Source of the DNA: an uncultured Armatimonadetes bacterium
GTDB taxonomy: Bacteria > Armatimonadota > Hebobacteria > Hebobacterales > Hebobacteraceae
Assembly (NCBI GenBank): GCA_963716175.1
Contig: OY970296.1
Location: 3,200,001 to 3,264,000, forward strand
Direction: 5' to 3'
DNA length: 64,000 nucleotides
The notes under the pieces were generated by a model. The model was not told the origin of the DNA. It saw only the letters and a list, made by a program, of their open reading frames with translations, and did no database searches. The position numbers and the translations under genes were made by a program. This document shows, one piece after another, positions 9,824-25,429 of the stretch (positions are counted from its first letter, which is position 1; every line of letters starts with the position of its first letter).

Positions 9824-10018
9824 TCAGTCCACGATGACGAGCTTCGGCCCGGCTTGTCTCCCCTGGTGAGGCATCACCAGGTGGAAACCGTGCCTGCGAA
9901 GTGCCTGCCTCAGCTCCCTATCCCCATTCACCCAGCCGAACAGCTCCCCCGTGCGCGGGTCTCGCACTTCCTGCAGCAGCCTGACTTCGACGGGTAGTGC
10001 GGTTGGTGCTTGGCTCAT
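9824..10018 (-). CDS. Small hypothetical protein (64 aa)
   Basis: ATG start, non-repetitive globular composition, fills intergenic gap. Confidence 0.5.
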   Translation of the reverse strand: MSQAPTALPVEVRLLQEVRDPRTGELFGWVNGDRELRQALRRHGFHLVMPHQGRQAGPKLVIVD

Positions 10019-10171
10019 GGCTTCGACTCCTGGTTCCCCGCCGGCTTGTTCAGCTATTCACTTGACTTGATGCCACTTCTTGCGCGTTCTTTCCCACATT
10101 TCAGGGCTGGATGTGGACACCGCTCATCCGGATATGGCATTAGAGTGCAATCTCAGCAGAGTCGGATTCCC

Positions 10172-10525
10172 ATGGCCAGGAGAGAGCACATCGCCTACGT
10201 GCCTTACGCCGAGCTCGCCCGCGCGTTCCGGGAGAGCGGGGGCTGGACCTGCGCGGTGTGTGGGGGCGCCGTGGTGTTCATGGGGTTCGGGCACGAGCCG
10301 CAGCCGCGGGTGCCTCTGTTCGAGTGCACGCGCTGCGGGCGACGCTCTGATGGCTGCCAGACCTTTGAGGGACATCACCTGCTCTACGGTGGTTGTCCCC
10401 TGGCGGACGAAGCGAGCAGCCGATGCGGCTACTGGCTGGGGCAATGGGCGCGTCCCCGCGGCGGGTGCCCAGTGTGTGGCCGGGCGCGGACGCCACCAGA
10501 AACGGCTGCGGCCCGGGGGCATTGA
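10172..10525 (+). CDS. Small multi-CxxC zinc-finger-like protein
   Basis: CAVCG, CTRCG, CPVCG plus three further Cys in 117 aa. Confidence 0.6.
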   Translation: MARREHIAYVPYAELARAFRESGGWTCAVCGGAVVFMGFGHEPQPRVPLFECTRCGRRSDGCQTFEGHHLLYGGCPLADEASSRCGYWLGQWARPRGGCPVCGRARTPPETAAARGH

Positions 10526-10595
10526 CCTCCCCGGGCCGAGCTGGATTCGGTGCGAGAGACCGCCGCTTACGAGGCCTCTCACGGAAGAAGGGCTG

Positions 10596-10754
10596 CTACT
10601 TGCAGCAGGACTCCTTGGTCTCCTTCTTCTCGGTCTCGCAGGTTTCTTTCTTCTCCGTCTCGCAAGACTGCTTGGTTTCCTTCTTCTCGGTCTCGCAGGT
10701 CTCTTTCTTCTCCGTCTCGCAAGTCTGCTTCTTTTCCTTCTCTTCGCATCCCAT
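10596..10754 (-). CDS. 52-aa Cys/Lys/Glu repeat peptide (CETEKKET x4, ends SCCK); not in ORF track
   Basis: RBS AAGGAGAGAG then ATG; MGCEEKEKKQTCETEKKETCETEKKETKQSCETEKKETCETEKKETKESCCK; synonymous variation between repeats. Confidence 0.8.
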   Translation of the reverse strand: MGCEEKEKKQTCETEKKETCETEKKETKQSCETEKKETCETEKKETKESCCK

Positions 10755-10886
10755 TCTGCTCTCTCCTTAGTAAGGTGCTTTGCGCCTGGATTCGCCAGGG
10801 CAGTGGCTTCCTCCTGCTGGACTTTGCCACTCTGGGTACGCTAGCAGCAACACCCCCCGTGGCGCCCGTGGTGCCCGCAGGGGCCC

Positions 10887-10892
10887 ATTATA
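10887..10892 (-). promoter_or_regulatory. Putative -10 box for the Cys-repeat peptide gene
   Basis: TATAAT on minus strand ~130 nt upstream of ATG; -35 weak. Confidence 0.4.
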
Positions 10893-10951
10893 TCTTTGAA
10901 GGCCATCAGGAGCAGACCCACGGCGACTGCCGCGATCGCCCCGACCAGGAG

Positions 10952-11695
10952 CTACCGCCGGCCGCTCTCCCCTCGCTTCCGCTCGCCCTCAATCCGATCC
11001 AGCTCGGCGAAGGTCTTCCTGATGTACTCGACCGTCCTCCGGGTCGCCTCCCGGAGGCTCTGCTCTCCCTGCTCGGCCGAGGCCCTGCTGGGCGCGCCCC
11101 ACAGGCCGGTCGGGCTCACACCCCGAGTCCCGACGTAGTCGAAGAACTCGCGTCCCTGCGAGGGGGCGAAGTCCGGCCTCGCCCGGTCCATCTTCACCAG
11201 CTCCGGACGTAGGTGCATGATGAGGGAGGTCTCGCTCTGGCCTGCGTGCAGTTCGGCGAATTCGCCCTGCTCTACGGTGAACGCGTCGGGTCCGCTCCAG
11301 ATCACCTGCACACCCCTGCGGTCCAGGTTGATCTCCCTTAGTGTGGGCTTGATGATCCAGTTCCCACCGTGCGCCACCAGCAGCACCACCTTGTTGATGC
11401 CATGGTAGTGCAAAGCGCCCACCAGGTCCTCGATCACTGCCGCCAGAGTGGCAGGCCGAAGCCACACCGTGCCGAAGAAATCCATGTGTTCGCGGGCGCA
11501 GCTGAACGGCAGGGCCGGCAGCAGGTAGCAATTCTCCAGCTCCCTTGCCACCCGCTCGCCCAGGGCCTGGGCCACCAGGTAGTCCGTGGCCAGCGGCAGC
11601 TGGTAGCTGTGCTGCTCGATGGAGCCGATGGGAAGGATGGCGATCTGCGGCTTCGCCTGCTCGATCTCGTGAAACGTATTCTCCCAGGTGACCAT
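10952..11695 (-). CDS. Creatininase family protein
   Basis: LPIGSIEQHS..LPLATD, HGGN, HAGQSETS. Confidence 0.9.
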   Translation of the reverse strand: MVTWENTFHEIEQAKPQIAILPIGSIEQHSYQLPLATDYLVAQALGERVARELENCYLLPALPFSCAREHMDFFGTVWLRPATLAAVIEDLVGALHYHGINKVVLLVAHGGNWIIKPTLREINLDRRGVQVIWSGPDAFTVEQGEFAELHAGQSETSLIMHLRPELVKMDRARPDFAPSQGREFFDYVGTRGVSPTGLWGAPSRASAEQGEQSLREATRRTVEYIRKTFAELDRIEGERKRGESGRR

Positions 11696-14684: not shown

Positions 14685-14777
14685 TGGCGTTCGCACAAAG
14701 AAGTAATGTGCGAACGCCGCTCTGGGCCCGTCTGAGCAGTTGCCTGAGCTTCGCCCGCTTGCTTCTTTGAGCGAAGC

Positions 14778-15662
14778 TCAGTAGCTGCGTCTGCGCAGCA
14801 GACTCTCCAGCACCGGCTTGATCTTCCCCCACTCGCTGGACCGCGCATAGCTGACCGGCACTCCGTCATCCGTTAGCCGCAGCCGACCGGACGCATCCAT
14901 GGCCACCCGCAGCTCATCGAAGAGGAACGCCTCCGGCGCCACCAGCGACAGCAGCGTGATGGCATCGAACAGCGTGAGCGGAGCCTCCTCCCGCACCGTC
15001 CCTCCCCGGTTGCGGTATTCCCGGTAGCAGTCGAGCAAAAAGGCCGAGGCTGGGTCCGCCGGGTTCAGCAATGCTTCCACCTCCGGCCTGGTCAGGATGT
15101 CGCTGCACGCCTCCAGCCCCACCAGCTTCGGGTTAGTCCTCTGGAAAACCAGCTTCGCCCCTACCGGGTCGCACCAGATATTGTACTCCGGCGCATTGCG
15201 CTCCGGATCCCCTTCCAGGCGGCCGGCCATGCACGTCACCGATCGCCAGCAGCTCGCGATCCCCGGATCGCTGGCAAGCATGCGGCCGATGTTGGTCAGG
15301 GGCCCGATGGTGATCAGATCGAACTCCTCCGCCACCCTCATCGCGGCGGCGATCGAGCTGGCGCGAAGCTCATCGTGCTCTGCTGAGAGGCGAGCCAGAT
15401 GGACCGGCGCCAGCGTCTCATAGGAGGGCAGCTCCTCGGGAGGAGCCTGGCCGCCCAGGGGGGTGATCGCCCCCGCGAGCACCGGCAGATCCAGCCCCGC
15501 TCGGCTCAGCAGCTCCTGCGCCAGCCACTGCCGCGCCTCTACCCGGCCATAGACCGTGGAGACTCCTACCACCTCGATCTCGGGGTGCCGGGCCGCGCAC
15601 AGCAGCGCCACCGCGTCATCTATGTCTGAGCCGATGTCAGTGTCAATCCACACCTTGCGCAT
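14778..15662 (-). CDS. Nucleoside hydrolase (IU-NH family)
   Basis: IDTDIGSDIDD, IGPLTN, EYNIWCDP. Confidence 0.9.
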   Translation of the reverse strand: MRKVWIDTDIGSDIDDAVALLCAARHPEIEVVGVSTVYGRVEARQWLAQELLSRAGLDLPVLAGAITPLGGQAPPEELPSYETLAPVHLARLSAEHDELRASSIAAAMRVAEEFDLITIGPLTNIGRMLASDPGIASCWRSVTCMAGRLEGDPERNAPEYNIWCDPVGAKLVFQRTNPKLVGLEACSDILTRPEVEALLNPADPASAFLLDCYREYRNRGGTVREEAPLTLFDAITLLSLVAPEAFLFDELRVAMDASGRLRLTDDGVPVSYARSSEWGKIKPVLESLLRRRSY

Positions 15663-15863
15663 CTCGCTTACCCTTTCTTGCCCGCCTCCGGCGGGCCCGG
15701 CGGTTCGTCTGCTCTTGCTGCAGGCCGCGCCAGAACGCAACAGGCCCCGGTTGTGTCCCCTCCTGCCGGCGCCAACCTGGGCCTATCGCGAGGTTCGCTC
15801 CTTCCGCTAGGATTCCTCGGCCGGCGAGAGGACCGGCAGCCAGCAAGGGCTAAAACTCCGCAC

Positions 15864-16925
15864 ATGGGACGATCACCAGCACCAAGCATCATCATCACCG
15901 GGGGCGCGGGCTTCCTGGGCTGCCATCTTGCCGCCGGTCTGGCCGGGCGCGCCGGGAGGCTGACCCTGATAGACGTGGCCCCCTTTGTCGCCGACGAATA
16001 CCCGCCCGGGGCCGAGCTGGTGCAGGCCGACGTGCGCGACGCGGCCGCCCTGGGCCAGGTCGTGGCCGCACATCCCTGCGATGTCGTCATACACGCCGCC
16101 GCCGCGCTGCCTCTGTGGACGCGCGAGGACATCTTCGGGGTGAATGTGGAGGGCACGCGGAATGTGCTCGCGGCGGCCCTCGCCTATGGGGTGAAGCGCG
16201 TGGTTTTCATCTCCTCTACTGCGGTCTACGGTGTCCCCAAGAAGCACCCGATTGAGGAGGACGATCCCCTGATCGGCGTCGGGCCCTATGGGGAGAGCAA
16301 GATCCAGGCGGAGCGGCTTTGCGAGGAGTATCGCATCAAGGGCTTGTGCGTGCCGATCATCCGCCCAAAGACCTTCATCGGCACCGGGCGGCTGGGGGTG
16401 TTCGCCATCCTCTACGACTGGGTGAAGAGCGGCGTCCGCATCCCGGTCATTGGTTCGGGGAAGAACCGTTATCAACTGCTGGAGGTGGAGGACCTGGTAG
16501 AGGCGATCTGGCTCGCCTGCGCCGCGCCCGCGGAGAAAGCGAACGTCGCCTTCAACGTCGGGGCGAAGCGGTTCGGCACCGTCCAGGAGGACGTGGGCGC
16601 GCTCTGCCAGTACGCGGGCAGCGGCGCGCGGGTGATGGCGACCCCGGCCTGGCTGGTGAAAGCGCTGCTGCGGTTCTTCGAGTTGGTCAAGCTGTCGCCG
16701 CTCTACAAGTGGGTCTATGGCACCGCCGACAAGGACTCGTTTGTCTCCAGCGAGCGCATCGAGCGGGCGCTGGGCTGGTCGCCGCGTTACAGCAATGCAG
16801 AAGCCCTGATCCGGTCCTATCAGTGGTACCTAGACCACTACACCGAGGTGGAGCAGGCCGTCGGCATCACCCACCGGGTGGCCTGGAAGCAGGGCGTGCT
16901 CAAGCTGTTGAAACGCCTGCTCTGA
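15864..16925 (+). CDS. NAD-dependent epimerase/dehydratase; last codons supplied by the integrated element
   Basis: ITGGAGFLG, YGESK (YxxxK); attL at 16908-16909. Confidence 0.92.
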   Translation: MGRSPAPSIIITGGAGFLGCHLAAGLAGRAGRLTLIDVAPFVADEYPPGAELVQADVRDAAALGQVVAAHPCDVVIHAAAALPLWTREDIFGVNVEGTRNVLAAALAYGVKRVVFISSTAVYGVPKKHPIEEDDPLIGVGPYGESKIQAERLCEEYRIKGLCVPIIRPKTFIGTGRLGVFAILYDWVKSGVRIPVIGSGKNRYQLLEVEDLVEAIWLACAAPAEKANVAFNVGAKRFGTVQEDVGALCQYAGSGARVMATPAWLVKALLRFFELVKLSPLYKWVYGTADKDSFVSSERIERALGWSPRYSNAEALIRSYQWYLDHYTEVEQAVGITHRVAWKQGVLKLLKRLL

Positions 16926-16932
16926 TTGGCAG
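16889..16932. other. attL (host arm + TT core 16908-16909 + element arm)
   Basis: gcagggcgtgctcaagctg-TT-gaaacgcctgctctgattggcag. Confidence 0.8.
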
Positions 16933-18462
16933 GGCGTTTTTGCCCCTCAGGTCCTTTCCAGCCCATGCTATCTCGATCTCATACTTCCGGTCCTTCGACG
17001 GGGCGCGCCAGTTGTCGCAGGCCACCGTCACCTTGAAATCAAGCTCTTGGAGAAGCCACCTCTTCTCTGGTAGTGTCATCGTGTCGAGTCGCCCGGCCAG
17101 GCCAGTGACTCTCTCGGCGACGGCGGCGGCGACCCGCTCCCGCAGCTCCGCGTCCTCGATCAAGGGCTCGATCTCTGCCAGGCGTGCCGCCCACTCCTCC
17201 TTGTCCTCCTCGATGTCCTTGCGGTGCGCAGCCAGCTCCGCAGCCGTGATCTCCTCGCCAGCACGCATCCGAATGTAGCGGTCAAGCTTCGCGTCCAGTT
17301 CCTTGAGCCTCCGCCTCAGCCGCTCGCGCTCCTCGCGGTACTCCGGCACCTTCCGGTCCTGCGTCCGCGCCATGTAGACCGCGGCCATCCTCGGGTCCGC
17401 CACCAGCTCCTCGATCAGGCCCCACACCTTCGCGTCGATGGGCGCCGCCGGCACGTAGCGCTCACGACAGGGCCTGCCCACGTTCGCCTTCCTCTGACAG
17501 CAGGAGTAGTAGCCCAACAGGGGCGCCTCCTGCACCATGCGGCCGAACATCTTCGACCCGCACTCCGCGCAGTGAATCACGCCGCCCAGCAGGAAGTTGT
17601 GCAGGAGCTTGCGCCGCGATCTGTGCTTGTGATAGCGGAGAGCCTTCTGCGCTTTCGCCCAGGTGGCCTCGCTCACCGCCGCCCCTGGTGTCAGGTCGGC
17701 CCGGGCGAAGCAGGCCTCCTCAACCTCCGGCGCCGATATGCGCCACTCGCCCTTGTACCGCGGATCCCTCAGCAGTTCTCGCACCACTGAGGGCCTCCAC
17801 GGCCGATGCGTCCTGGCGAACAGCCGGCGCCCGTTCAGCTCGTCACTGATCTCGCGCGTACCCTTGCCCCGGCAGGACAGGTCGAAGATCAGCCGCACCG
17901 TCGCCAGCTCCTCTTCGCAGGCCGCCGGGCGGCCGCACACCCCCCGCCGCTCGCCCCGCTGCCAGCGATACCCGAACGGTTCCTGCCACACCGAGAACTC
18001 GCCCCGTGCCGCCCTGCCCTGCTTGCCGGTCTTGGTGCGCCGGTAGATGTCGTCGGCCTCCCGCTGCGCCTTCCATGAGCCGATCATGGACACCAGCACG
18101 TCAATGTCGTCGCCGAAGTCCACGTCGCCCCGCGGGGTATGCACCCGAACCCCGGCCGCCTTCAGCCGCGCCGCGATCATCGGCCATACAAGCTGATTCC
18201 TGGCGAGCCGGTCCTGGTCATAGACGACGAGGTGCTTGAACCGTCCGGCCTCCGCGTCGTCCAGCAGTCGGCGCAGCGCCGGCCTGTTGCTGAGGTCATC
18301 CTTGCGCGCGGACTTACCGGCGTCCTCGTAGACCTCACTTAGCGGCCAGCCTGCCCGCTTGCAGACCTCGCGCCCCTGCCGGTCTTGCTCCGGCAAGCTC
18401 ACCGCGTCGAGCGTCGCCTGGCCTTGTGAGCTTACTCTGGTGTAAATCGCTGCCTTCGTCAT
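16900..18462 (-). CDS. Large serine recombinase (integrase)
   Basis: AIYTRVSS catalytic Ser, RPALRRLL, DRLAR, PFGY, Zn ribbon CAECG..C, coiled coil. Confidence 0.95.
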   Translation of the reverse strand: MTKAAIYTRVSSQGQATLDAVSLPEQDRQGREVCKRAGWPLSEVYEDAGKSARKDDLSNRPALRRLLDDAEAGRFKHLVVYDQDRLARNQLVWPMIAARLKAAGVRVHTPRGDVDFGDDIDVLVSMIGSWKAQREADDIYRRTKTGKQGRAARGEFSVWQEPFGYRWQRGERRGVCGRPAACEEELATVRLIFDLSCRGKGTREISDELNGRRLFARTHRPWRPSVVRELLRDPRYKGEWRISAPEVEEACFARADLTPGAAVSEATWAKAQKALRYHKHRSRRKLLHNFLLGGVIHCAECGSKMFGRMVQEAPLLGYYSCCQRKANVGRPCRERYVPAAPIDAKVWGLIEELVADPRMAAVYMARTQDRKVPEYREERERLRRRLKELDAKLDRYIRMRAGEEITAAELAAHRKDIEEDKEEWAARLAEIEPLIEDAELRERVAAAVAERVTGLAGRLDTMTLPEKRWLLQELDFKVTVACDNWRAPSKDRKYEIEIAWAGKDLRGKNALPIRAGVSTA

Positions 18463-18713
18463 CTATGCCCCTCCTGTCTGGGCCGGCGGCCAGCCGGTGA
18501 GGGGGTGTGCCGGCCAGCCGCGCGGCCCGATGTGATCGCGGTTCACCGGGCAGGGCGGCCTCCCGAGAGTGAGGGTCAAAGGGCCCCTCGGAAAGCGCAA
18601 GCCCCGCCCGGCAGACACCGCGTCAGGTGGTAAGGCCAGACGTAGTGCAACACGGACGGGGCGAATAGGTTCTCTACCAGAGTATGGTGTCTGCACCGTC
18701 TGACCTTACCGCC
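18463..18713 (-). ncRNA. Structured 5' leader RNA of the integrase gene (c4/CI-like antisense architecture, putative)
   Basis: ~27-bp imperfect stem 18626-18653/18687-18713; two 9-10 nt segments complementary to contiguous target 18601-18619; further stems with G-U pairs on the minus strand. Confidence 0.55.
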
Positions 18714-18716
18714 CCG

Positions 18717-18745
18717 ATTCTAAGCCACCAGGCCCGATCTGTCAA
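18717..18745 (-). promoter_or_regulatory. Sigma70-type promoter upstream of integrase leader
   Basis: TTGACA-N17-TAGAAT. Confidence 0.8.
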
Positions 18746-19192
18746 GCACGAAAACCGCCCAATCCACCTGCACCTCCACCCCATGCCCAGCACGAACCGC
18801 CCCGCACATCGCCACCTGCGAGGCCATTTCCGGCCGAACGTCCAGAATCGCCCAGGAATCGGCTTTGCCGGGGCCGCACCCACCACCCATGCCAGGCGCT
18901 AATCGCCTGCCCTGCCGCCACCAGTGCAGCCAGGGCAGGCCTTGTGGCGGCCTCGCGCCTCCAAGCAGGGAGGGCCGCCGCCTCCAGACAGACGGCGGCC
19001 CTCAACCCGGCGGCGCCGCCCCCGACGTCGGGGAAAAGTCGAGCCCGCTCCCGCGATCCCACGGGAGAAGGGCGGCGCCACTGATGCCGCCTCGGCGGAT
19101 CAGACCGCGGCTGCCAAAGTCAAGTCAGGTGGGGCCGGCCTGCCACCGGCGCGACCGGCCCCCGGCCTCTGGCTCGCAGGCGCGGCCGAGGC

Positions 19193-20449
19193 CTACACCA
19201 GACACACGAACGGCGAAACCTGGGTCAGACCGTCGGCAAGCGTGATAGGCGCGCGAAGCCACGGCTGCCCATCGGTGCAGGCGAACGCCTTCAACACGCT
19301 GCGGTTCTGAATGAAGTTCGTGCCGTGCGCGTTGGTCATGTCCACGGTCAGGTTCGTGCCGTCTTTGCAGATGTAGTACGACCAGTCCACCAGCAGCACG
19401 TCGCCCGCGGTCCCGAGCACCGGCGCGGCGTCCCATATGTCCACGGGAAAACCGAGCACCGAGCCCCAGGCGTTGGCCGAGGGCTGCCATAGAGGAGTCA
19501 GCCCGCCCGGCAGAGTCGCCATCGCGATCTGCGCGATCACGGTCTGACTGATGATCCACCGCTTCTGCCTACCGCGCGAAGCAGCGACCATGTTCACGAA
19601 GTCGGCGTAGGCCACCGCGCCCGGGCCGGCCCGCGTGACGTTGATCGTCGCCGGATGGCCGATCACGCCCAGCGGTTTCGCCACGCCATCGCCGGCCAAG
19701 TAGGCGTCATCCATCGTCGCCGCGATGGCCTGCGCGAACAACCCGCCCAGGAGCGCGGACACGCCGGGCACGTTCCGGATCAGCTTGTCCGTCAGTTCGG
19801 TGTACCCGGCCAGTTCGTTGGGCTTCAGGGTCAGCTCGCCGAAGGTGGGCTGAGACTCGGGCTTCGCCGCGCCCTCCCCGATCCACGAAACGGTCACGCC
19901 GCCGAACCGCCCGGCCGTGTAGTCGAGCAGCGGCATTTCGATTGCCGCGTCCGGCTGCTGGTCCGACCGGGGCGCATACCGCGCATAGGGCCGGACAAGT
20001 GACTGGTAGGTGATCGCCTCCACCAGCGCGTCGCTCCACTGAGTCGGAACCAAGAAGCCGCCGCTCGCGCCTGTTTGCACTTCCAGCGCGCGGGTGTTCA
20101 GCGCCTGAAGTCGGGAGTCACCGGGGTTCGCGTTCAGCGTCCGGATGAAATCGCCGAAGCTGTCGAAGCCACCGGCCGCCGAGTCCAGCGCCCGCAGCTC
20201 GGAGTCCGGCCGCCGCTCGGCGACGCCGCCGAGGTTGATCGCGGCCCGCTGCGCCGACAGGGAAGCCTGGTCGCGCTGCCCTTCGAGCGCCGTGATGCGA
20301 TCCACCACGGAGGTGCGAATCCGGGCGATCTCGTCCCGGAACTGCCGCACCACATCCTCGTCGCCGCCGGGCAGTGCCAGTCGCGCCCCGCAATCGCAAA
20401 AGAGTCGCGTACCGTCATACTGCTTGCCGCACTTCGGACAGACCTGCAT
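19193..20449 (-). CDS. HK97-fold phage major capsid protein with N-terminal zinc ribbon
   Basis: GGFLVP, WIGEG..KP, G.G..KPLGV, LGFPV, DVLLVDWS; N-terminal CPKCG..FCDCG then coiled coil. Confidence 0.9.
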   Translation of the reverse strand: MQVCPKCGKQYDGTRLFCDCGARLALPGGDEDVVRQFRDEIARIRTSVVDRITALEGQRDQASLSAQRAAINLGGVAERRPDSELRALDSAAGGFDSFGDFIRTLNANPGDSRLQALNTRALEVQTGASGGFLVPTQWSDALVEAITYQSLVRPYARYAPRSDQQPDAAIEMPLLDYTAGRFGGVTVSWIGEGAAKPESQPTFGELTLKPNELAGYTELTDKLIRNVPGVSALLGGLFAQAIAATMDDAYLAGDGVAKPLGVIGHPATINVTRAGPGAVAYADFVNMVAASRGRQKRWIISQTVIAQIAMATLPGGLTPLWQPSANAWGSVLGFPVDIWDAAPVLGTAGDVLLVDWSYYICKDGTNLTVDMTNAHGTNFIQNRSVLKAFACTDGQPWLRAPITLADGLTQVSPFVCLV

Positions 20450-20709
20450 GGTCTGCTCACTTTCCGACCTGCCCGGCCACCGCGGCCGGGTCAGGTCTCA
20501 CGCTTAGTGTGCATCCGCCGAGAGGTGGCTATGCCGGCCTCCCTGCGCTCGACTGCCGGCCCGGAAACAAGCGTGGTGGCCGCCGTCGCGAACGGCGAAT
20601 CCGTCGCCTGCCCCCGGGTGGCTCTGCCGGCCCGGTTGGGAGGTGGTGTCCTGCCGCGGCCGCGACAGTCCCGGCCTCCGTCCCCGGGTGGCGTATGCAC
20701 CAACGCCCC

Positions 20710-21345
20710 TCATCGCTGATACCGTTCATAGGGGTCCCACTCTTCGACGCTGCCATAGGTCTTCGAGCCCGGCGGCATGACGGGAGGATCCCCGGGCCGC
20801 CGCAGCACGATCACCTCAACCTCTTCCGCCGCCGGCGCCTCCTCAGAGACCGCCACCACCGCGTCAACCGCCGCCGTCATGCCCGCAGGCTGCGCACCCC
20901 GCCCCGGTGCCCGCGCCCTGGCGATGGCCTCGGCTTCCCCCTCATCGGGCTCGGCCCGGGCCACCACGATGGGCGGTGCCGGTTTCGGACGCAACTGCTT
21001 GGCCGCCGACGCCAGCGCCGACCAAGCATCGCTCCGCGGAAAGTGCCGCAGAAGCCCCTGCACGGCGACTTTCCAGCCAGAGGCGTCCTGGCAGAGGATG
21101 GCCCTCAAGGTCCTCACCACGTCGTCACGCAGAGGCTCCAGCGCACCTTCTGCCGGCAAGGCCGCGACCGCCGCCAGTAACGGCTCCGGCCAGTTCTCTG
21201 TAGTGGTGTCCGCCAGTGCCGACTTGGCTCTTTCGTAGCCGAGAAAGTCGAACACCAGGTCCGCTCCGTCTAAGAGTGACGGCAGCGCCCACCGCCGCAC
21301 CAGCCGCCCCGCCCTTTCCAGTAGGCTCAGCATAGCCTTACTCAT
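20710..21345 (-). CDS. Hypothetical element protein (helical N-terminus, Pro/Ala/Glu-rich tail)
   Basis: Start overlaps upstream stop; co-oriented in operon. Confidence 0.65.
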   Translation of the reverse strand: MSKAMLSLLERAGRLVRRWALPSLLDGADLVFDFLGYERAKSALADTTTENWPEPLLAAVAALPAEGALEPLRDDVVRTLRAILCQDASGWKVAVQGLLRHFPRSDAWSALASAAKQLRPKPAPPIVVARAEPDEGEAEAIARARAPGRGAQPAGMTAAVDAVVAVSEEAPAAEEVEVIVLRRPGDPPVMPPGSKTYGSVEEWDPYERYQR

Positions 21346-21775
21346 GCGCCGCCTCCAGCGCCGCCACCAGCCTTTCCAGTTCGACCAGCCGCTCCTCGAC
21401 CTCAACACCCCGCCTCACGGCCAAGGCCATCTGCGCGATGCTGGCGCAATCCCGCGCCCTGCCGGATGCCAGCTCGCCCCGAAGGACGGCCCGGGCCAGC
21501 GACTCAAAGAACCCGCGCACGGCCTCACCCGAAGAGAAGTCTATCTGCCCCACCAGCAGCTTCCGCCGTTCCGCCACCACGCGGCCCCCCTGGGCCTGAG
21601 CCTGCCGGCGCTTGTCCGCCAGCCGCTCTGAGTGCGCGAAGCACATGCCGCTGCCATCTGCCAGGGGTATGCCCCGACACCGCTTCCCTGCCCGTGTAGT
21701 GGCTGAGCAGAACTGCCCAGCCGTCTCTGACCCGATCACGCCGCGCTCATTGTCCCTGTGAGTCTCAGAGGCCAC
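21338..21775 (-). CDS. CCCH (HGGxSTG-like) Zn-binding protein, candidate terminase small subunit
   Basis: CSATTRAGKRC..MCFAH; C-terminal EERLVELE coiled coil; RBS CAGGAGG. Confidence 0.6.
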   Translation of the reverse strand: MASETHRDNERGVIGSETAGQFCSATTRAGKRCRGIPLADGSGMCFAHSERLADKRRQAQAQGGRVVAERRKLLVGQIDFSSGEAVRGFFESLARAVLRGELASGRARDCASIAQMALAVRRGVEVEERLVELERLVAALEAAHE

Positions 21776-21930
21776 TGTGGCCCTCCTGGTGCGTCCTGCG
21801 TGTTTTCACCTGACACCCATGTAAAGCGTGCTTGAACAGCCGCCCCCTACATGGGCCGCCGCCCAGCCAGGCCGCGGCCTGGCGCCACCCAAAGCAAGCA
21901 AGTACACGGTTCACTGAATCTCACTCTGCC

Positions 21931-22713
21931 TCACCACTTCACCCTGCCGCCCTTGTCCCCGAACTCTTCGGCCGCGGCTGGCGCTCCACGAGGTGGCCAG
22001 TATGGTTGCTTCTTATCGTCATCGCTCATCCGTGCGTCGCGGAAGTCCCTGCGCGGTGGCGGCCAGTTGCCCTTGATGGATGCCACCAGCACTCGGATCG
22101 GGTCATCGGCCGTCCGCTGTGGGAGCAGTTCGATCTGCGCCTCGATGACCTCGATGCCGAAGTCCTGCACCAGCTTTGCGGCCTGGCTTTTCCCCACGCC
22201 TTGACTTACCAACCGGGAAACAGCAGCAGCGCGCTCTGCTGCTCCCCCCTCTGAAATGTCTTTCTCTGAAGAGGGGGGGGTGTCGTTTTTGTTGTCACTT
22301 TGCCCGTGAGTGACAACACCCACGTTGTCACTAGTGACAACACCAGTGTTGTCAGTTGGCTGGTCCGAAGTGACAACACCCACGTTGTCAGTTGGCCGCC
22401 ATGCCGGGTTCAGATCGTGGCTCGAAGTAGCGCCTCGCCGGCGCATGATTTTGAGGTGTCCCCGCTGCTCGAGGTGGCGGATGGCCCGGGACACGATCCG
22501 CTTGCCGACCTGCACCTCCAGGCCGAGTTTCTGGGCGATCGTCCGGGTTCGAATCTTGGCGGGGATGAGGGCGCCACTCGCCTTGTCCTTCCGGCTGTGT
22601 CGGGCCAGCACGCAGAACACCCGGAGATCCCAGGCCGTCAGTAGCAGGTCGGAGATCACGCGCTCGGGCACTTGCGCAAACCTCGCTCGTGGGGTATCAT
22701 CTGGTCGCCGCAC
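21931..22713 (-). CDS. HTH replication initiator-like protein
   Basis: FAQVP..DLRVFCVL..TIAQKLG..VSRAIRHLEQRGHL winged-HTH pattern; internal iterons; GTG start with RBS. Confidence 0.7.
   Translation of the reverse strand: MRRPDDTPRARFAQVPERVISDLLLTAWDLRVFCVLARHSRKDKASGALIPAKIRTRTIAQKLGLEVQVGKRIVSRAIRHLEQRGHLKIMRRRGATSSHDLNPAWRPTDNVGVVTSDQPTDNTGVVTSDNVGVVTHGQSDNKNDTPPSSEKDISEGGAAERAAAVSRLVSQGVGKSQAAKLVQDFGIEVIEAQIELLPQRTADDPIRVLVASIKGNWPPPRRDFRDARMSDDDKKQPYWPPRGAPAAAEEFGDKGGRVKW
22311..22390. repeat. Three 20-bp palindromic iterons (putative origin)
   Basis: TGACAAC-N6-GTTGTCA at 22311, 22335, 22371; half-site at 22291. Confidence 0.8.
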
Positions 22714-22921
22714 TCTCCAGCTCCTGGGTGCGGCATGAACCGGCCTGGCAGGGCCGGTTTTCTTCTGGCCATCGCAGCGCGCCGCCCGGGCCTCGGGCTC
22801 GGCGGAGACGCCACGCGCGCACCTCGCTGAGATGCTTCCCGTGGGCAAACGGATCTACGTGGCGCATCCGGGGCGAGTGGGGCAAGACGCAGCCGGCGTG
22901 TGTATGGTAGCGGCCGGTCAT
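22697..22921 (-). CDS. Small hypothetical element protein (74 aa)
   Basis: ATGA overlap with MTase stop; MTGRYHTHAGCVLPH...; ends inside rep start region. Confidence 0.45.
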   Translation of the reverse strand: MTGRYHTHAGCVLPHSPRMRHVDPFAHGKHLSEVRAWRLRRARGPGGALRWPEENRPCQAGSCRTQELESAATR

Positions 22922-24183
22922 GGCGCCCCCTCCTGCACCGCCACCTGCCTGGCCTGCTCCGCCTCGCGGATGCGCGCCTCGGCCGTCGCCATCGCCACCG
23001 GGTCGATCTCTATCCCCACGAAGTCCCGGCCCAGCTCGACCGCGGCCACGCCGGTTGTGCCGCCGCCGAGGAAGGGATCGCACACCAGGTCCCCAGGCGA
23101 AGTCAGCCGGCCGATGTAGTACCGGGCACAGCCGATGCTCTGCTGCCAGGGGTGCGCGTCCTTCTGGACGTGCTCGCTCACATAGACGTTCTCGAACCAC
23201 GCCCGTGGCCCGGTGAAGTCGTGCCGCACGAAGAAGAGAAGCGGCTTGCTTCTCGTCCAGATACACATGGTGAAGAGGCGGCCCTCGGCGCCCGGCAGGA
23301 AGATGCTGCCCGAGCACCAGAAACGGAGCTGCTGCCGTAGGCCGTCGAACGCCGCTGGCAGGCAGATGTTCCCCGAGTATGCGATCAGCATACCGTCGGA
23401 CTTGAGGACGCGCGCCGCGAACTCGCTCAGTGCCGGCCAGAGGTGTTCGGCCTGCTTGAGATAGGGCGGATCGGTAAAGAGCAAGTCAACCGAGGCGTCG
23501 GCGATCTCCGCGCCTCGCTCGCGCATATCGCCCAGCAGTAGCGTCGCCGTGCCGATGGTGGCGTCGGCCTCGGCCGCGCCGTTCGCAGAGTAGCCGTCTC
23601 TGCGGGCCAGTTTCTCCAGGCCGCGGGCGTCGAGGACCCGATGGGGCAGATCCCCACCGAAGCTGGCCAGGGCCTTCAGCGCGCGGTCGCGCTCCAGGCG
23701 GTTCTTGGCGATCACTGCTGGCCGCGACGGACGGTACAGCTTACCGTCCCGGCCAAGCACCTCCCCAGGTGTATGATTCTGAACACCTGAAAGGTCGGCG
23801 GCCACGGTGCCCAGGCTCATGCCCACCAGCTCGGCGATGCGGCGAAGGCTCAGGCCGCGGCCGCGCAGTTCGCCGCAGAGTGCGCCCCTCTGCTCCTTGC
23901 TCAACTGGCGGCGAGCGAGGTTCAGCGTCAGCACGTGCTCAAGCTTCTGGCCTTCGGTCAGGCCAGGGCGAACGATCGTGGGGTAGTCCGTGATGCCGAG
24001 TTCGGCGCAGATGGCAAGCCGGGTGTGGCCGTCGAGTACCTGCCCTTTCTCGTCGAGTTCTATCGGGACAAGCACGCCCTCCCAGGCGATGGAAGCCTTG
24101 AGCGCGGCGCGCCGGTCGGTGGCCAAGGGTAGAAACAAATCGGCGAACCTACCGGGCCGCACTTCGGGCTTGGGCGCGCTCAT
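22918..24183 (-). CDS. ParB-like N-terminal domain + HTH + N6A/N4C DNA methyltransferase (beta class)
   Basis: VLDGHTR (ParB-like); SLRRIAELVG HTH; TDPPY precedes DPFLGGGTT. Confidence 0.88.
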   Translation of the reverse strand: MSAPKPEVRPGRFADLFLPLATDRRAALKASIAWEGVLVPIELDEKGQVLDGHTRLAICAELGITDYPTIVRPGLTEGQKLEHVLTLNLARRQLSKEQRGALCGELRGRGLSLRRIAELVGMSLGTVAADLSGVQNHTPGEVLGRDGKLYRPSRPAVIAKNRLERDRALKALASFGGDLPHRVLDARGLEKLARRDGYSANGAAEADATIGTATLLLGDMRERGAEIADASVDLLFTDPPYLKQAEHLWPALSEFAARVLKSDGMLIAYSGNICLPAAFDGLRQQLRFWCSGSIFLPGAEGRLFTMCIWTRSKPLLFFVRHDFTGPRAWFENVYVSEHVQKDAHPWQQSIGCARYYIGRLTSPGDLVCDPFLGGGTTGVAAVELGRDFVGIEIDPVAMATAEARIREAEQARQVAVQEGAP

Positions 24184-24347
24184 CGCGCCCGCCCCTCCGC
24201 CAGCGCGGCGATCGCCTGCTCACAGCGCCGCACCGCTTCTTCCGGCGTCATCCCCACGGGCAAGCGCTGGCGGAACGTGAAGGTCGGGCCCTTGCGCTCG
24301 GCCTTCTGCTTTCGTTGGTCTTCGGTTTTCGCGCCGATCATCCGCAC
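24180..24347 (-). CDS. Small basic protein (~55 aa), candidate directionality factor
   Basis: RBS GGGGAG, GTG start, stop overlaps MTase start (ATGA). Confidence 0.5.
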   Translation of the reverse strand: MRMIGAKTEDQRKQKAERKGPTFTFRQRLPVGMTPEEAVRRCEQAIAALAEGRAR

Positions 24348-24573
24348 GTGTCTCCCCAAACAGAACGCGAGCCCGCTCGGTTCTCCGAGCTGTGGGCTCG
24401 CGTCGGCCACCGCGAGGCGGTCTGGGTTATGTCAACGGGCTTGCGCCCGGTCTTCGCTGGGCAGGCCAGCCGCTAGGACAGCCGACCTGCCCATGAGACT
24501 GCACTCGTTCCAACTGCGAACTCGCCGCGCCCTGTGGGCGCACGTCAAGCCGCGCACCGCGCGGCAGGGGGTG

Positions 24574-25113
24574 TCACCCTTCAGCTAGCAACCAGCGCCA
24601 TCGCGCGCACACGGTCTCCGCGATTTTCTGATCGCCCTCGCCGAGTCTCACGCCCGCGCGCTCGGCCAGGAACTCGGGCGTCAACGCCGCCGCCACTCGC
24701 GCCTGATGTTCAAGCAGCAGACGATGACGCTCAGCCCTGCCGGCAAGCTCGGCGGCGACTTCGTCGGCATCTTCCTGCCAGGCCCACGTTACGCCGGGGT
24801 AACCCTCCGCGAGGAACTCTGCCGCGGCCCGATCCAGCCGCGCCGTCATCTGTGCCGCCATGAGCTTCATGGCCTCGGCCTCGGCGCGGTCGCGCTCCTC
24901 CTCGGCCACGAGTGCGGTGACTTCCTCGCCCAGGACGAGGCGCAGGGTGCGCGCGTACGTCATGAGGCGGCGGGTCCCGGTGTCGCGAACAAGGTCCGAC
25001 AGTATGGCAGGGTGAACCCTCGCCCGCCGCGCTGCCTCGTTCAAGCTGAATCCGGCCCGTTCTATGAGCTGGCCCAGCCGCTTACCCCGGGAAGGGGTTT
25101 CAGGTGTTCCCAT
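24574..25113 (-). CDS. XRE-like HTH regulator
   Basis: LGQLIERAGFSLNEAARRARVHPAILSDL. Confidence 0.7.
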   Translation of the reverse strand: MGTPETPSRGKRLGQLIERAGFSLNEAARRARVHPAILSDLVRDTGTRRLMTYARTLRLVLGEEVTALVAEEERDRAEAEAMKLMAAQMTARLDRAAAEFLAEGYPGVTWAWQEDADEVAAELAGRAERHRLLLEHQARVAAALTPEFLAERAGVRLGEGDQKIAETVCARWRWLLAEG

Positions 25114-25162
25114 GTTTCTCTCCGTTTCATCACAGCCGACTGTATGCCCCATAACACGGCTC

Positions 25163-25191
25163 AGTATACCACATCGGGGCTGGCCTGTCTA
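25163..25191 (-). promoter_or_regulatory. Sigma70-type promoter of the element main operon
   Basis: TAGACA-N17-TATACT ~50 nt upstream of XRE start. Confidence 0.7.
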
Positions 25192-25241
25192 TAGCGATTT
25201 TGCCCCTCCGGCCAGGTTTTTTTCGCGCCCCCGCCCGGGCC

Positions 25242-25277
25242 AAAGAGAAGGACCCCGCACCCGAGGGCGCGAGGTCC
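25242..25277 (-). terminator. Rho-independent terminator, placed to end the integrase transcript in the circular form
   Basis: GGACCTCGCGCCC-tc-GGGTGCGGGGTCC then TTCTCTTT on minus strand. Confidence 0.65.
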
Positions 25278-25385
25278 GGTCCGCCCGATCAGGTTGTCAG
25301 CCGCTCACGCCGCCCAGCGCCCGACCGCCCTCAGGCCCACAAGGTCGCACCGCTTCTCACAGAGCCGCAGGACGCTCCTGGTGGA

Positions 25386-25429
25386 CTCGCAATCTGAGCG
25401 GGGGCTTCTTCAAGCGGGTCTTGTAGGGC
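25386..25429. other. attR (element arm + TT core 25409-25410 + host arm with displaced epimerase 3' end)
   Basis: ctcgcaatctgagcgggggcttc-TT-caagcgggtcttgtag; encodes FKRVL*. Confidence 0.8.

Follow-up and report, generated by a model that had tools for sequence, protein, structure and literature searches.

Positions 25242-25410 raise the question of whether an element that recombines inside its own integrase gene uses the resulting change of C-terminus as a switch, or whether the change simply comes with the place where the attachment site lies. The segment is the right end of an 8.5-kb element and includes the right-end half of attP. The element is integrated at 16910-25410 of the window (the whole 64,000-nt stretch of DNA analysed here), among the final codons of a host gene for an epimerase, and has a G+C content of 67.8% against 66.9% for the window.

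The integrase gene and its attachment sites

The features that define the insertion are the following:

15678-16925, plus strand: host gene for an NAD-dependent epimerase/dehydratase (Pfam Epimerase, 8.6e-43); its last five codons and stop are now element-derived
16900-18462, minus strand: large serine integrase gene in its integrated form, 520 aa; its last two codons and stop are host DNA
16908-16909: TT crossover dinucleotide at attL, straddling integrase codons 518/519
16910-16934: P' arm of attP, which falls within the final ~8 codons of the integrase gene
25384-25408: P arm of attP, at the right end of the element
25409-25410: TT crossover dinucleotide at attR, placed by comparison of the element ends and by empty sites
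25411-25426, plus strand: native end of the epimerase gene, last codons plus stop, displaced by the insertion (B' side of attB); the empty-site reading, ..LKLFKRVL and stop, agrees with loci L006 and L007
25434-27812: GH20-family glycosidase gene, to the right of the element

The epimerase and integrase genes are convergent, and the integrase stop (16900-16902) lies inside the epimerase 3' end. When the host sequences to the left and right were joined at the two TTs by script, the epimerase ended in ...LKLFKRVL and a stop; with the element inserted it ends in ...LKLLKRLL and a stop, the replacement codons and stop (16910-16925) being supplied by the element. At the junction, the reconstructed attP and attB have only TT in common; the bases to its left and right are different. 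As reconstructed, attP forms an imperfect inverted repeat in which 17/25 positions are symmetric about the TT, compared with 9/25 in attB.

With the left flank as query, a DNA search found orthologous epimerase genes in three genomes from the same family, at 80-82% identity. Uninterrupted sites were present in two related genomes, G011 (locus L006) and G005 (locus L007), whose epimerase DNA is 81-82% identical to that of the window. The G005 epimerase passes through the TT into ...F-KKVL and a stop, and the right flank with its GH20 gene follows directly; the G011 site reads ...F-KRVL and stop, nearly base for base as the reconstruction predicts. In a further genome (G003, locus L008), the epimerase C-terminus was different and the right flank was not found within the locus. 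The earlier note had left room for the real crossover to lie elsewhere, and sequence comparison with the empty sites in L006 and L007 independently confirmed it at this TT. Taken together, the 2-bp core, the symmetry of attP and the empty sites are the signature of a serine integrase site. In G011, about 0.85 kb of unrelated DNA lies beside attB, between the epimerase stop and the GH20 homolog (about 2125-2950 of L006).

Two further features complete the integrase frame once the element is free:

25308-25409, minus strand: 34 codons (RSPRS...GRWAA) joined to the integrase frame in the free (circular) form only
25305-25307, minus strand: stop codon of the free-form integrase

According to the earlier note, the integrated integrase reads across attL and ends in host DNA, and joining the element ends at TT gives a longer in-frame product. 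Both readings held. The ORF at 16900-18462 crosses attL, stops two codons into host DNA and ends in ...RAGVSTA after 520 aa, while translation and a scripted join of the ends at TT gave an in-frame ORF of 552 aa, whose last 34 residues come from 25409-25308. Because the TT cut falls inside codons 518/519, the free element would encode 552 aa and the inserted element 520 aa, a net gain of 32 residues for the free form. Recombination inside the end of the integrase gene is thereby confirmed to change the predicted C-terminus between the two states.

The integrase matched the Pfam families Resolvase (PF00239, 4.3e-25, residues 4-155), Recombinase (PF07508, 2.2e-13) and Zn_ribbon_recom (PF13408, 1.1e-07). 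At E <= 0.001, a protein search gave 35 matches, the window's own protein included. We aligned the window integrase with the five closest other proteins (31-74% identity) and the ORF of locus L017, and the catalytic motif Y7 T8 R9 V10 S11 Q15 was invariant in all seven sequences. By its domains, the 2-bp core and the palindromic attP, the enzyme classifies as a large serine recombinase, for which attP x attB catalysis is predicted. As read from its sequence, the locus is a genuine case, with clear boundaries, of attP lying across the end of the gene for the serine integrase that would use it, and the target is the last codons of a protein-coding gene.

The last invariant residues of the alignment are W500-A501-G502, with no conservation beyond them. 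We modelled the 520-aa form with AlphaFold on an alignment of six sequences. The model contains long helices at 372-401 and 407-453 and a last long strand at 493-500; its mean pLDDT is 73 overall, falling to 48 for residues 501-510 and 42 for 511-520. As both the fold and the conservation end at about 500-502, the crossover at 518/519 would lie beyond the conserved fold, in an end that is modelled with low confidence and is probably flexible.

Integrase ends in related elements

A metagenome scan yielded 19 close relatives of the integrase (43-74% identity). Viral contigs contained distant integrases only (<=31% identity), and the best relative in the genomes searched from the phylum was 46% identical (G006, on the same contig as L017). 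In fifteen loci, comprising metagenome relatives and L017, the gene is complete at its 3' end and the WAG motif is present. All fifteen diverge right after WAG, with tails of 15 to 50 residues, and none of the tails, which represent integrated or sense-oriented forms and not free ones, ends in Ala-Ala.

At eight of these loci (L025, L026, L031, L032 and L034-L037), a convergent gene faces the integrase, whose frame continues in antisense into the final codons of that gene; at L031 it encodes three SLH domains (1.3e-40). After a conserved '...cg AA', these integrases read host DNA in antisense and come to a chance stop 5, 9, 19 or 34 codons beyond the inferred core. Five other loci (L017 and L027-L030) have an integrase that ends on its own strand in F.LP. 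and a stop, which is how SLH proteins of this lineage normally end. Of the 22 long ORFs with an F.LP. end in the window's genome, 20 have the fuller pattern ...RDQ.A.....F.LP. The SLH-gene relatives thus apparently sit in the same kind of target in both orientations. The 20 SLH-type genes with this C-terminus in the window's genome represent a multi-copy target.

The closest relative (L024, 74% identity) ends across a TT into the codons FKRVM and a stop, which resemble the epimerase end, and host-like DNA follows. We considered whether L024 is a flipped insertion in the same epimerase site and did not retain this: its downstream gene has a homolog in the window's genome, at 1.926 Mb with different neighbours. 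The DNA is that of a host, and the epimerase site is at most a candidate.

The tails of the relatives differ after WAG because the 3' ends of their integrase genes run into host or host-type codons at the target. These ends at host target codons indicate that a crossover inside the last integrase codons is a habit of the family, and that a long or special tail is not. The element in the window has its attP across the end of its serine integrase gene, and the layout recurs in relatives. By analogy, if the host end is rebuilt as in the window, the sense-oriented relatives would probably have the same short integrase end in both states.

Several searches around these loci gave no match. Over the full available length of the eight antisense loci, scanned for the far ends of their elements, the best mirrors of the integrase-proximal arm reached 15-17/28, which is chance level, and a scan of six of the eight for displaced SLH last codons gave none. 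The helix-turn-helix gene at the right end of the element had no tblastn match in 81 related loci; it matched the window's own genome only and none of the 400 other genomes searched from the phylum.

Two of the antisense loci, L031 and L036, were tried as a pair with the same element in different flanks. This was discarded, as the two part ways within the integrase gene while the core is still ~230 nt ahead, and do not give a clean junction. They differ by one mismatch in the first 10000 nt and by none in 10001-11319, and divergence sets in over 11320-11655, which suggests chimeric assembly or recombination between related elements. At L029 (3168-3622) and L030 (7292-7746), the full integrase gene is tail to tail with a fragment of a second integrase on the opposite strand. 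The fragment matches residues 381-518 only, and a symmetric site with a central TT lies between the two; the arrangement could reflect insertions in series, in which a later element entered the attL of an older one that has since decayed.

The free-form tail and its surroundings

The following signals and the gene next to them lie in the DNA supplied by the element:

25240-25277, minus strand: terminator-like hairpin, 27 nt beyond the stop of the free form, with a 12-bp stem, a loop of 4 and TTCTCTTTGG after it
25163-25191, minus strand: promoter-like site (TAGACA-17-TATACT with TG) for the helix-turn-helix gene
24574-25152, minus strand: helix-turn-helix gene at the right end of the element (weak Pfam HTH_3 match, 0.0055)
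18717-18745, minus strand: integrase promoter-like site (TTGACA-17-TAGAAT, 11/12), ~255 nt upstream of the integrase start
16916-16941, plus strand: terminator-like hairpin (7 pairs), then the T run TTTTTGCCCC, element-supplied and just after the rebuilt epimerase stop

The earlier note had placed a hairpin and U-tract terminator (25242-25277) after the free-form stop, and in the integrated state had the transcript lose it; both statements agree with what we found. The 12-bp stem (25277->25250 on the minus strand) has G-C at 9/12 pairs and is followed by a T-rich tail. A hairpin scan gave 3 overlapping matches, compared with 0.5 +/- 0.9 in shuffles, and the fold of the 86 nt around the hairpin had z = -1.65, with 13 of 200 shuffles folding equally well. 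With a G+C-rich hairpin and a T run, which is interrupted, the site has the marks of an intrinsic terminator and is a predicted one. It lies just upstream of the promoter-like site of the helix-turn-helix gene, on the same strand, and by this position between the free-form stop and the next promoter it would end the integrase transcript and insulate that promoter. A consensus scan detected no minus-strand terminator-like site in 14700-16950, which includes the 2.2 kb downstream of the integrated stop. The integrase promoter-like site at 18717-18745 is inside the element, so the gene can be transcribed in either state.

On the other side of the crossover, the P' arm and adjoining bases form the plus-strand hairpin at 16916-16941. 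One 25-bp arm thus does three jobs, as integrase tail, as replacement C-terminus of the host protein and as part of a terminator-like hairpin for the host gene. In its predicted coding roles, the attP arm is used on both strands.

The length of the tail is not remarkable. The other two frames at the same place are open for 17 and 25 codons, and at the 66% G+C of the genome 57% of random positions are open for at least 34 codons; an open frame of 34 codons is expected by chance. Its G+C by codon position (0.62/0.65/0.85) can be set beside that of the integrase (0.68/0.48/0.85). The third position looks coding, and the second, at 0.65, does not, being unlike the 0.48-0.53 of the element's genes; a rough hand estimate for 34 codons puts the match at ~1 in 25, a weak hint. 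A tblastn search of the tail against the 81 related loci found no match.

We consider it probable that the long tail is a by-product of attP being placed in the end of the integrase gene, a disordered appendage with no dedicated switch. The 34 residues would then be unselected read-through across the P arm and a short spacer to the first stop, and the terminator beyond that stop would close the integrase transcript and shield the next promoter. At the other end, the P' arm would rebuild the last codons of the host gene on the opposite strand and provide its terminator-like hairpin. The enzyme would tolerate the tail through its flexible C-terminus, and any effect on stability would be incidental. 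Against this reading we counted the rarity of Ala-Ala ends, a tmRNA tag that ends in LAA, the presence of clpP and clpX, the third-position GC of 0.85 and the good terminator, as well as the functional rewiring known from Mx8 and BPs and the fact that free-form tails of relatives were not recovered.

Several of these points bear on the proposal that the tail is a state-dependent degron, with its -WAA end recognised by ClpXP like an ssrA tag, so that the free form is short-lived and the -STA form stable, or the reverse, and the level of integrase is coupled to integration. The tag of the host tmRNA, ANQPLALAA, ends in LAA where the free-form tail ends in WAA, and clpP (PF00574, 7.2e-75) and clpX (PF06689, 3.9e-15) are present and adjacent in the host genome. 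Ala-Ala ends are uncommon: among 1897 gene-like ORFs 38 have one (2.0%), and among 175324 stops, counted over the six frames, 1959 follow one (1.1%), a base rate of 1-2%; the match is, however, a single feature picked out post hoc, and the antepenultimate residue is W, not L. The model predicts that the tail follows an unstructured stretch, which would make it accessible.

Phage BPs provides the precedent that the earlier note invoked, in which BPs-type mycobacteriophages place attP in the repressor gene and integration removes a tag. The source agrees: integration of BPs removes 33 residues with an ssrA-like tag from the repressor, and the BPs integrase itself has a C-terminal proteolysis signal (PMC4557955). 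The likeness to BPs and to the phages of clusters G, I, N and P is that a C-terminal extension is lost on integration, 33 residues in BPs and 32 net here. It differs in that the gene split there is the repressor gene and here that of the integrase, the helix-turn-helix gene at 24574-25152 lying wholly within the element and untouched by recombination, and in that the degron here is a two-residue resemblance. The BPs integrase is of the tyrosine type.

In the relatives, the tails are unconserved and 0/15 end in AA; the tblastn search of 81 loci gave no homolog of the tail, and the sense-oriented relatives, with probably the same short end in both states, would make the switch no family trait. 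The expectation of the earlier note that homologs conserve an open tail ending in AA was thus not borne out among the integrated and sense-oriented forms compared, and its claim of a functional degron or directionality switch found no support, all 15 relatives being different after WAG. A lineage-specific degron may be compatible with these sequences, since the tails compared are not free-form ones. On balance we regard a state-dependent degron in either direction as unlikely, and the specific version, with a free-form integrase rapidly cleared by ClpXP and a stable 520-aa prophage form, as decidedly unlikely. If true, the degron reading would give a serine integrase a built-in sensor of integration state, comparable to the switch in the repressor of BPs; for now, a degron or directionality switch is an idea that hangs on two terminal alanines.

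Another way in which the tail could matter is through activity. The C-terminal domain of serine integrases carries a coiled coil that controls directionality. The 34 extra residues might alter DNA binding, synapsis or directionality, the free form favouring integration and the integrated form being different in excision. With 7 Arg and 1 Lys among its 34 residues, the tail is basic, and it starts at the P arm beside the C-terminal domain. The model is Mx8, whose attP is part of the int coding sequence: on integration the gene becomes a recombinant one, its 3' end is new, and the altered protein is reported to have changed properties, including specificity (PMC6070905). The prophage form, which changes from IntP to IntX, is described as still a working protein (PMC6070905, PMC4383910). 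As in Mx8, the crossover here is inside the integrase ORF and yields two C-termini (520 and 552 aa). Mx8 Int, however, is a tyrosine recombinase with a tRNA-linked attB, whereas the enzyme here is a large serine recombinase with a 2-bp core at the end of a protein gene, which makes it an analogue and not a member; a functional change was reported for Mx8 and is a conjecture here. Within its own family, the integrated-state tails of relatives are arbitrary host-derived stretches of 2 to 34 residues, which argues that the C-terminus tolerates any appendage; nothing is conserved after WAG, and model confidence is low beyond residue 500. A switch of activity is accordingly very doubtful in our view.

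Known systems and the remaining element

Among serine integrases, the element resembles phiC31, Bxb1, A118, TP901-1 and SV1 in having a three-domain enzyme, a 2-bp crossover and an imperfectly palindromic attP of ~50 bp near int. Tn4451 and Tn4453 encode TnpX, a large serine recombinase with state-dependent expression, the circular joint forming a promoter. The likeness is that a circular joint creates something absent when the element is integrated; the difference is that here the joint completes a coding 3' end and adds a terminator. SSV-type integrases are tyrosine recombinases, and integration splits their gene into two large parts. Both the Mx8 and the archaeal SSV integrases are described as extending across attP (PMC4383910), as here, with the difference from SSV that only the tail changes in the present case. 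A large survey of large serine recombinases kept sites within 500 nt of the gene, and its accessible text makes no mention of overlap (PMC10083194). Searches of the full text of articles, with supplements such as the att tables of PMC10083194 outside their scope, turned up no paper in which the gene for a serine integrase runs across its own attP.

If the layout is common, 'full-length' integrases annotated from integrated elements have host-derived ends, prediction of att sites can start at the 3' end of the integrase gene itself, and engineered use should copy the free-form ORF. A switch of stability or activity, if proven, would be a new regulatory principle for serine integrases; the present evidence shows none.

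All of these readings take the element to be able to circularise. It could also be a fixed remnant that no longer does so, in which case the 552-aa form would never be made. The element is small and has one structural gene only. Five sequencing runs, with no RNA run listed among them, cover small shares of the stretch (0.06-0.14); four of these metagenome runs were assembled into contigs, and no contig in these four bridges the attP junction or an empty attB junction, the pieces being short and of low depth, so that the result counts as a blank only, for excision and for expression. The integrase ORF, by contrast, is intact, with three domains and the invariant catalytic motif; attP keeps its symmetry (17/25), the two att sites are exact, empty sites occur in close relatives, and the promoter-like site is intact. 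An intact gene with intact sites makes a dead element unlikely, and we rate this last reading as highly improbable.

In its gene content, the element has an HK97-type major capsid gene (19193-20449, minus strand; Pfam Phage_capsid 2.9e-33, PHROG major head protein 3.1e-38), whose protein has a Cys-rich N-terminus (CPKC...CDC). No second recognisable virion gene was found among the genes of the 8.5-kb element. The others encode a ParB-like/DNA methyltransferase fusion, a weakly matching replication-initiator-like protein and small unknowns, and the whole has the look of a satellite of phages or of a minimal element with a capsid gene. The 730 nt that separate the capsid gene from the integrase gene (18463-19192) have no convincing ORF and contain the strong promoter-like site; in metagenome run X5, a divergent contig extends over 18513-18822, and 18929-19131 is skipped in a second contig. 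Three more distant serine-recombinase matches, including L002 (G000:C1:2041967-2043208), are present elsewhere in the window's genome, and one of the three has an in-frame TGA inside the match. The capsid gene adjoins the integrase gene also in the relatives L045 (42% identity) and L024.
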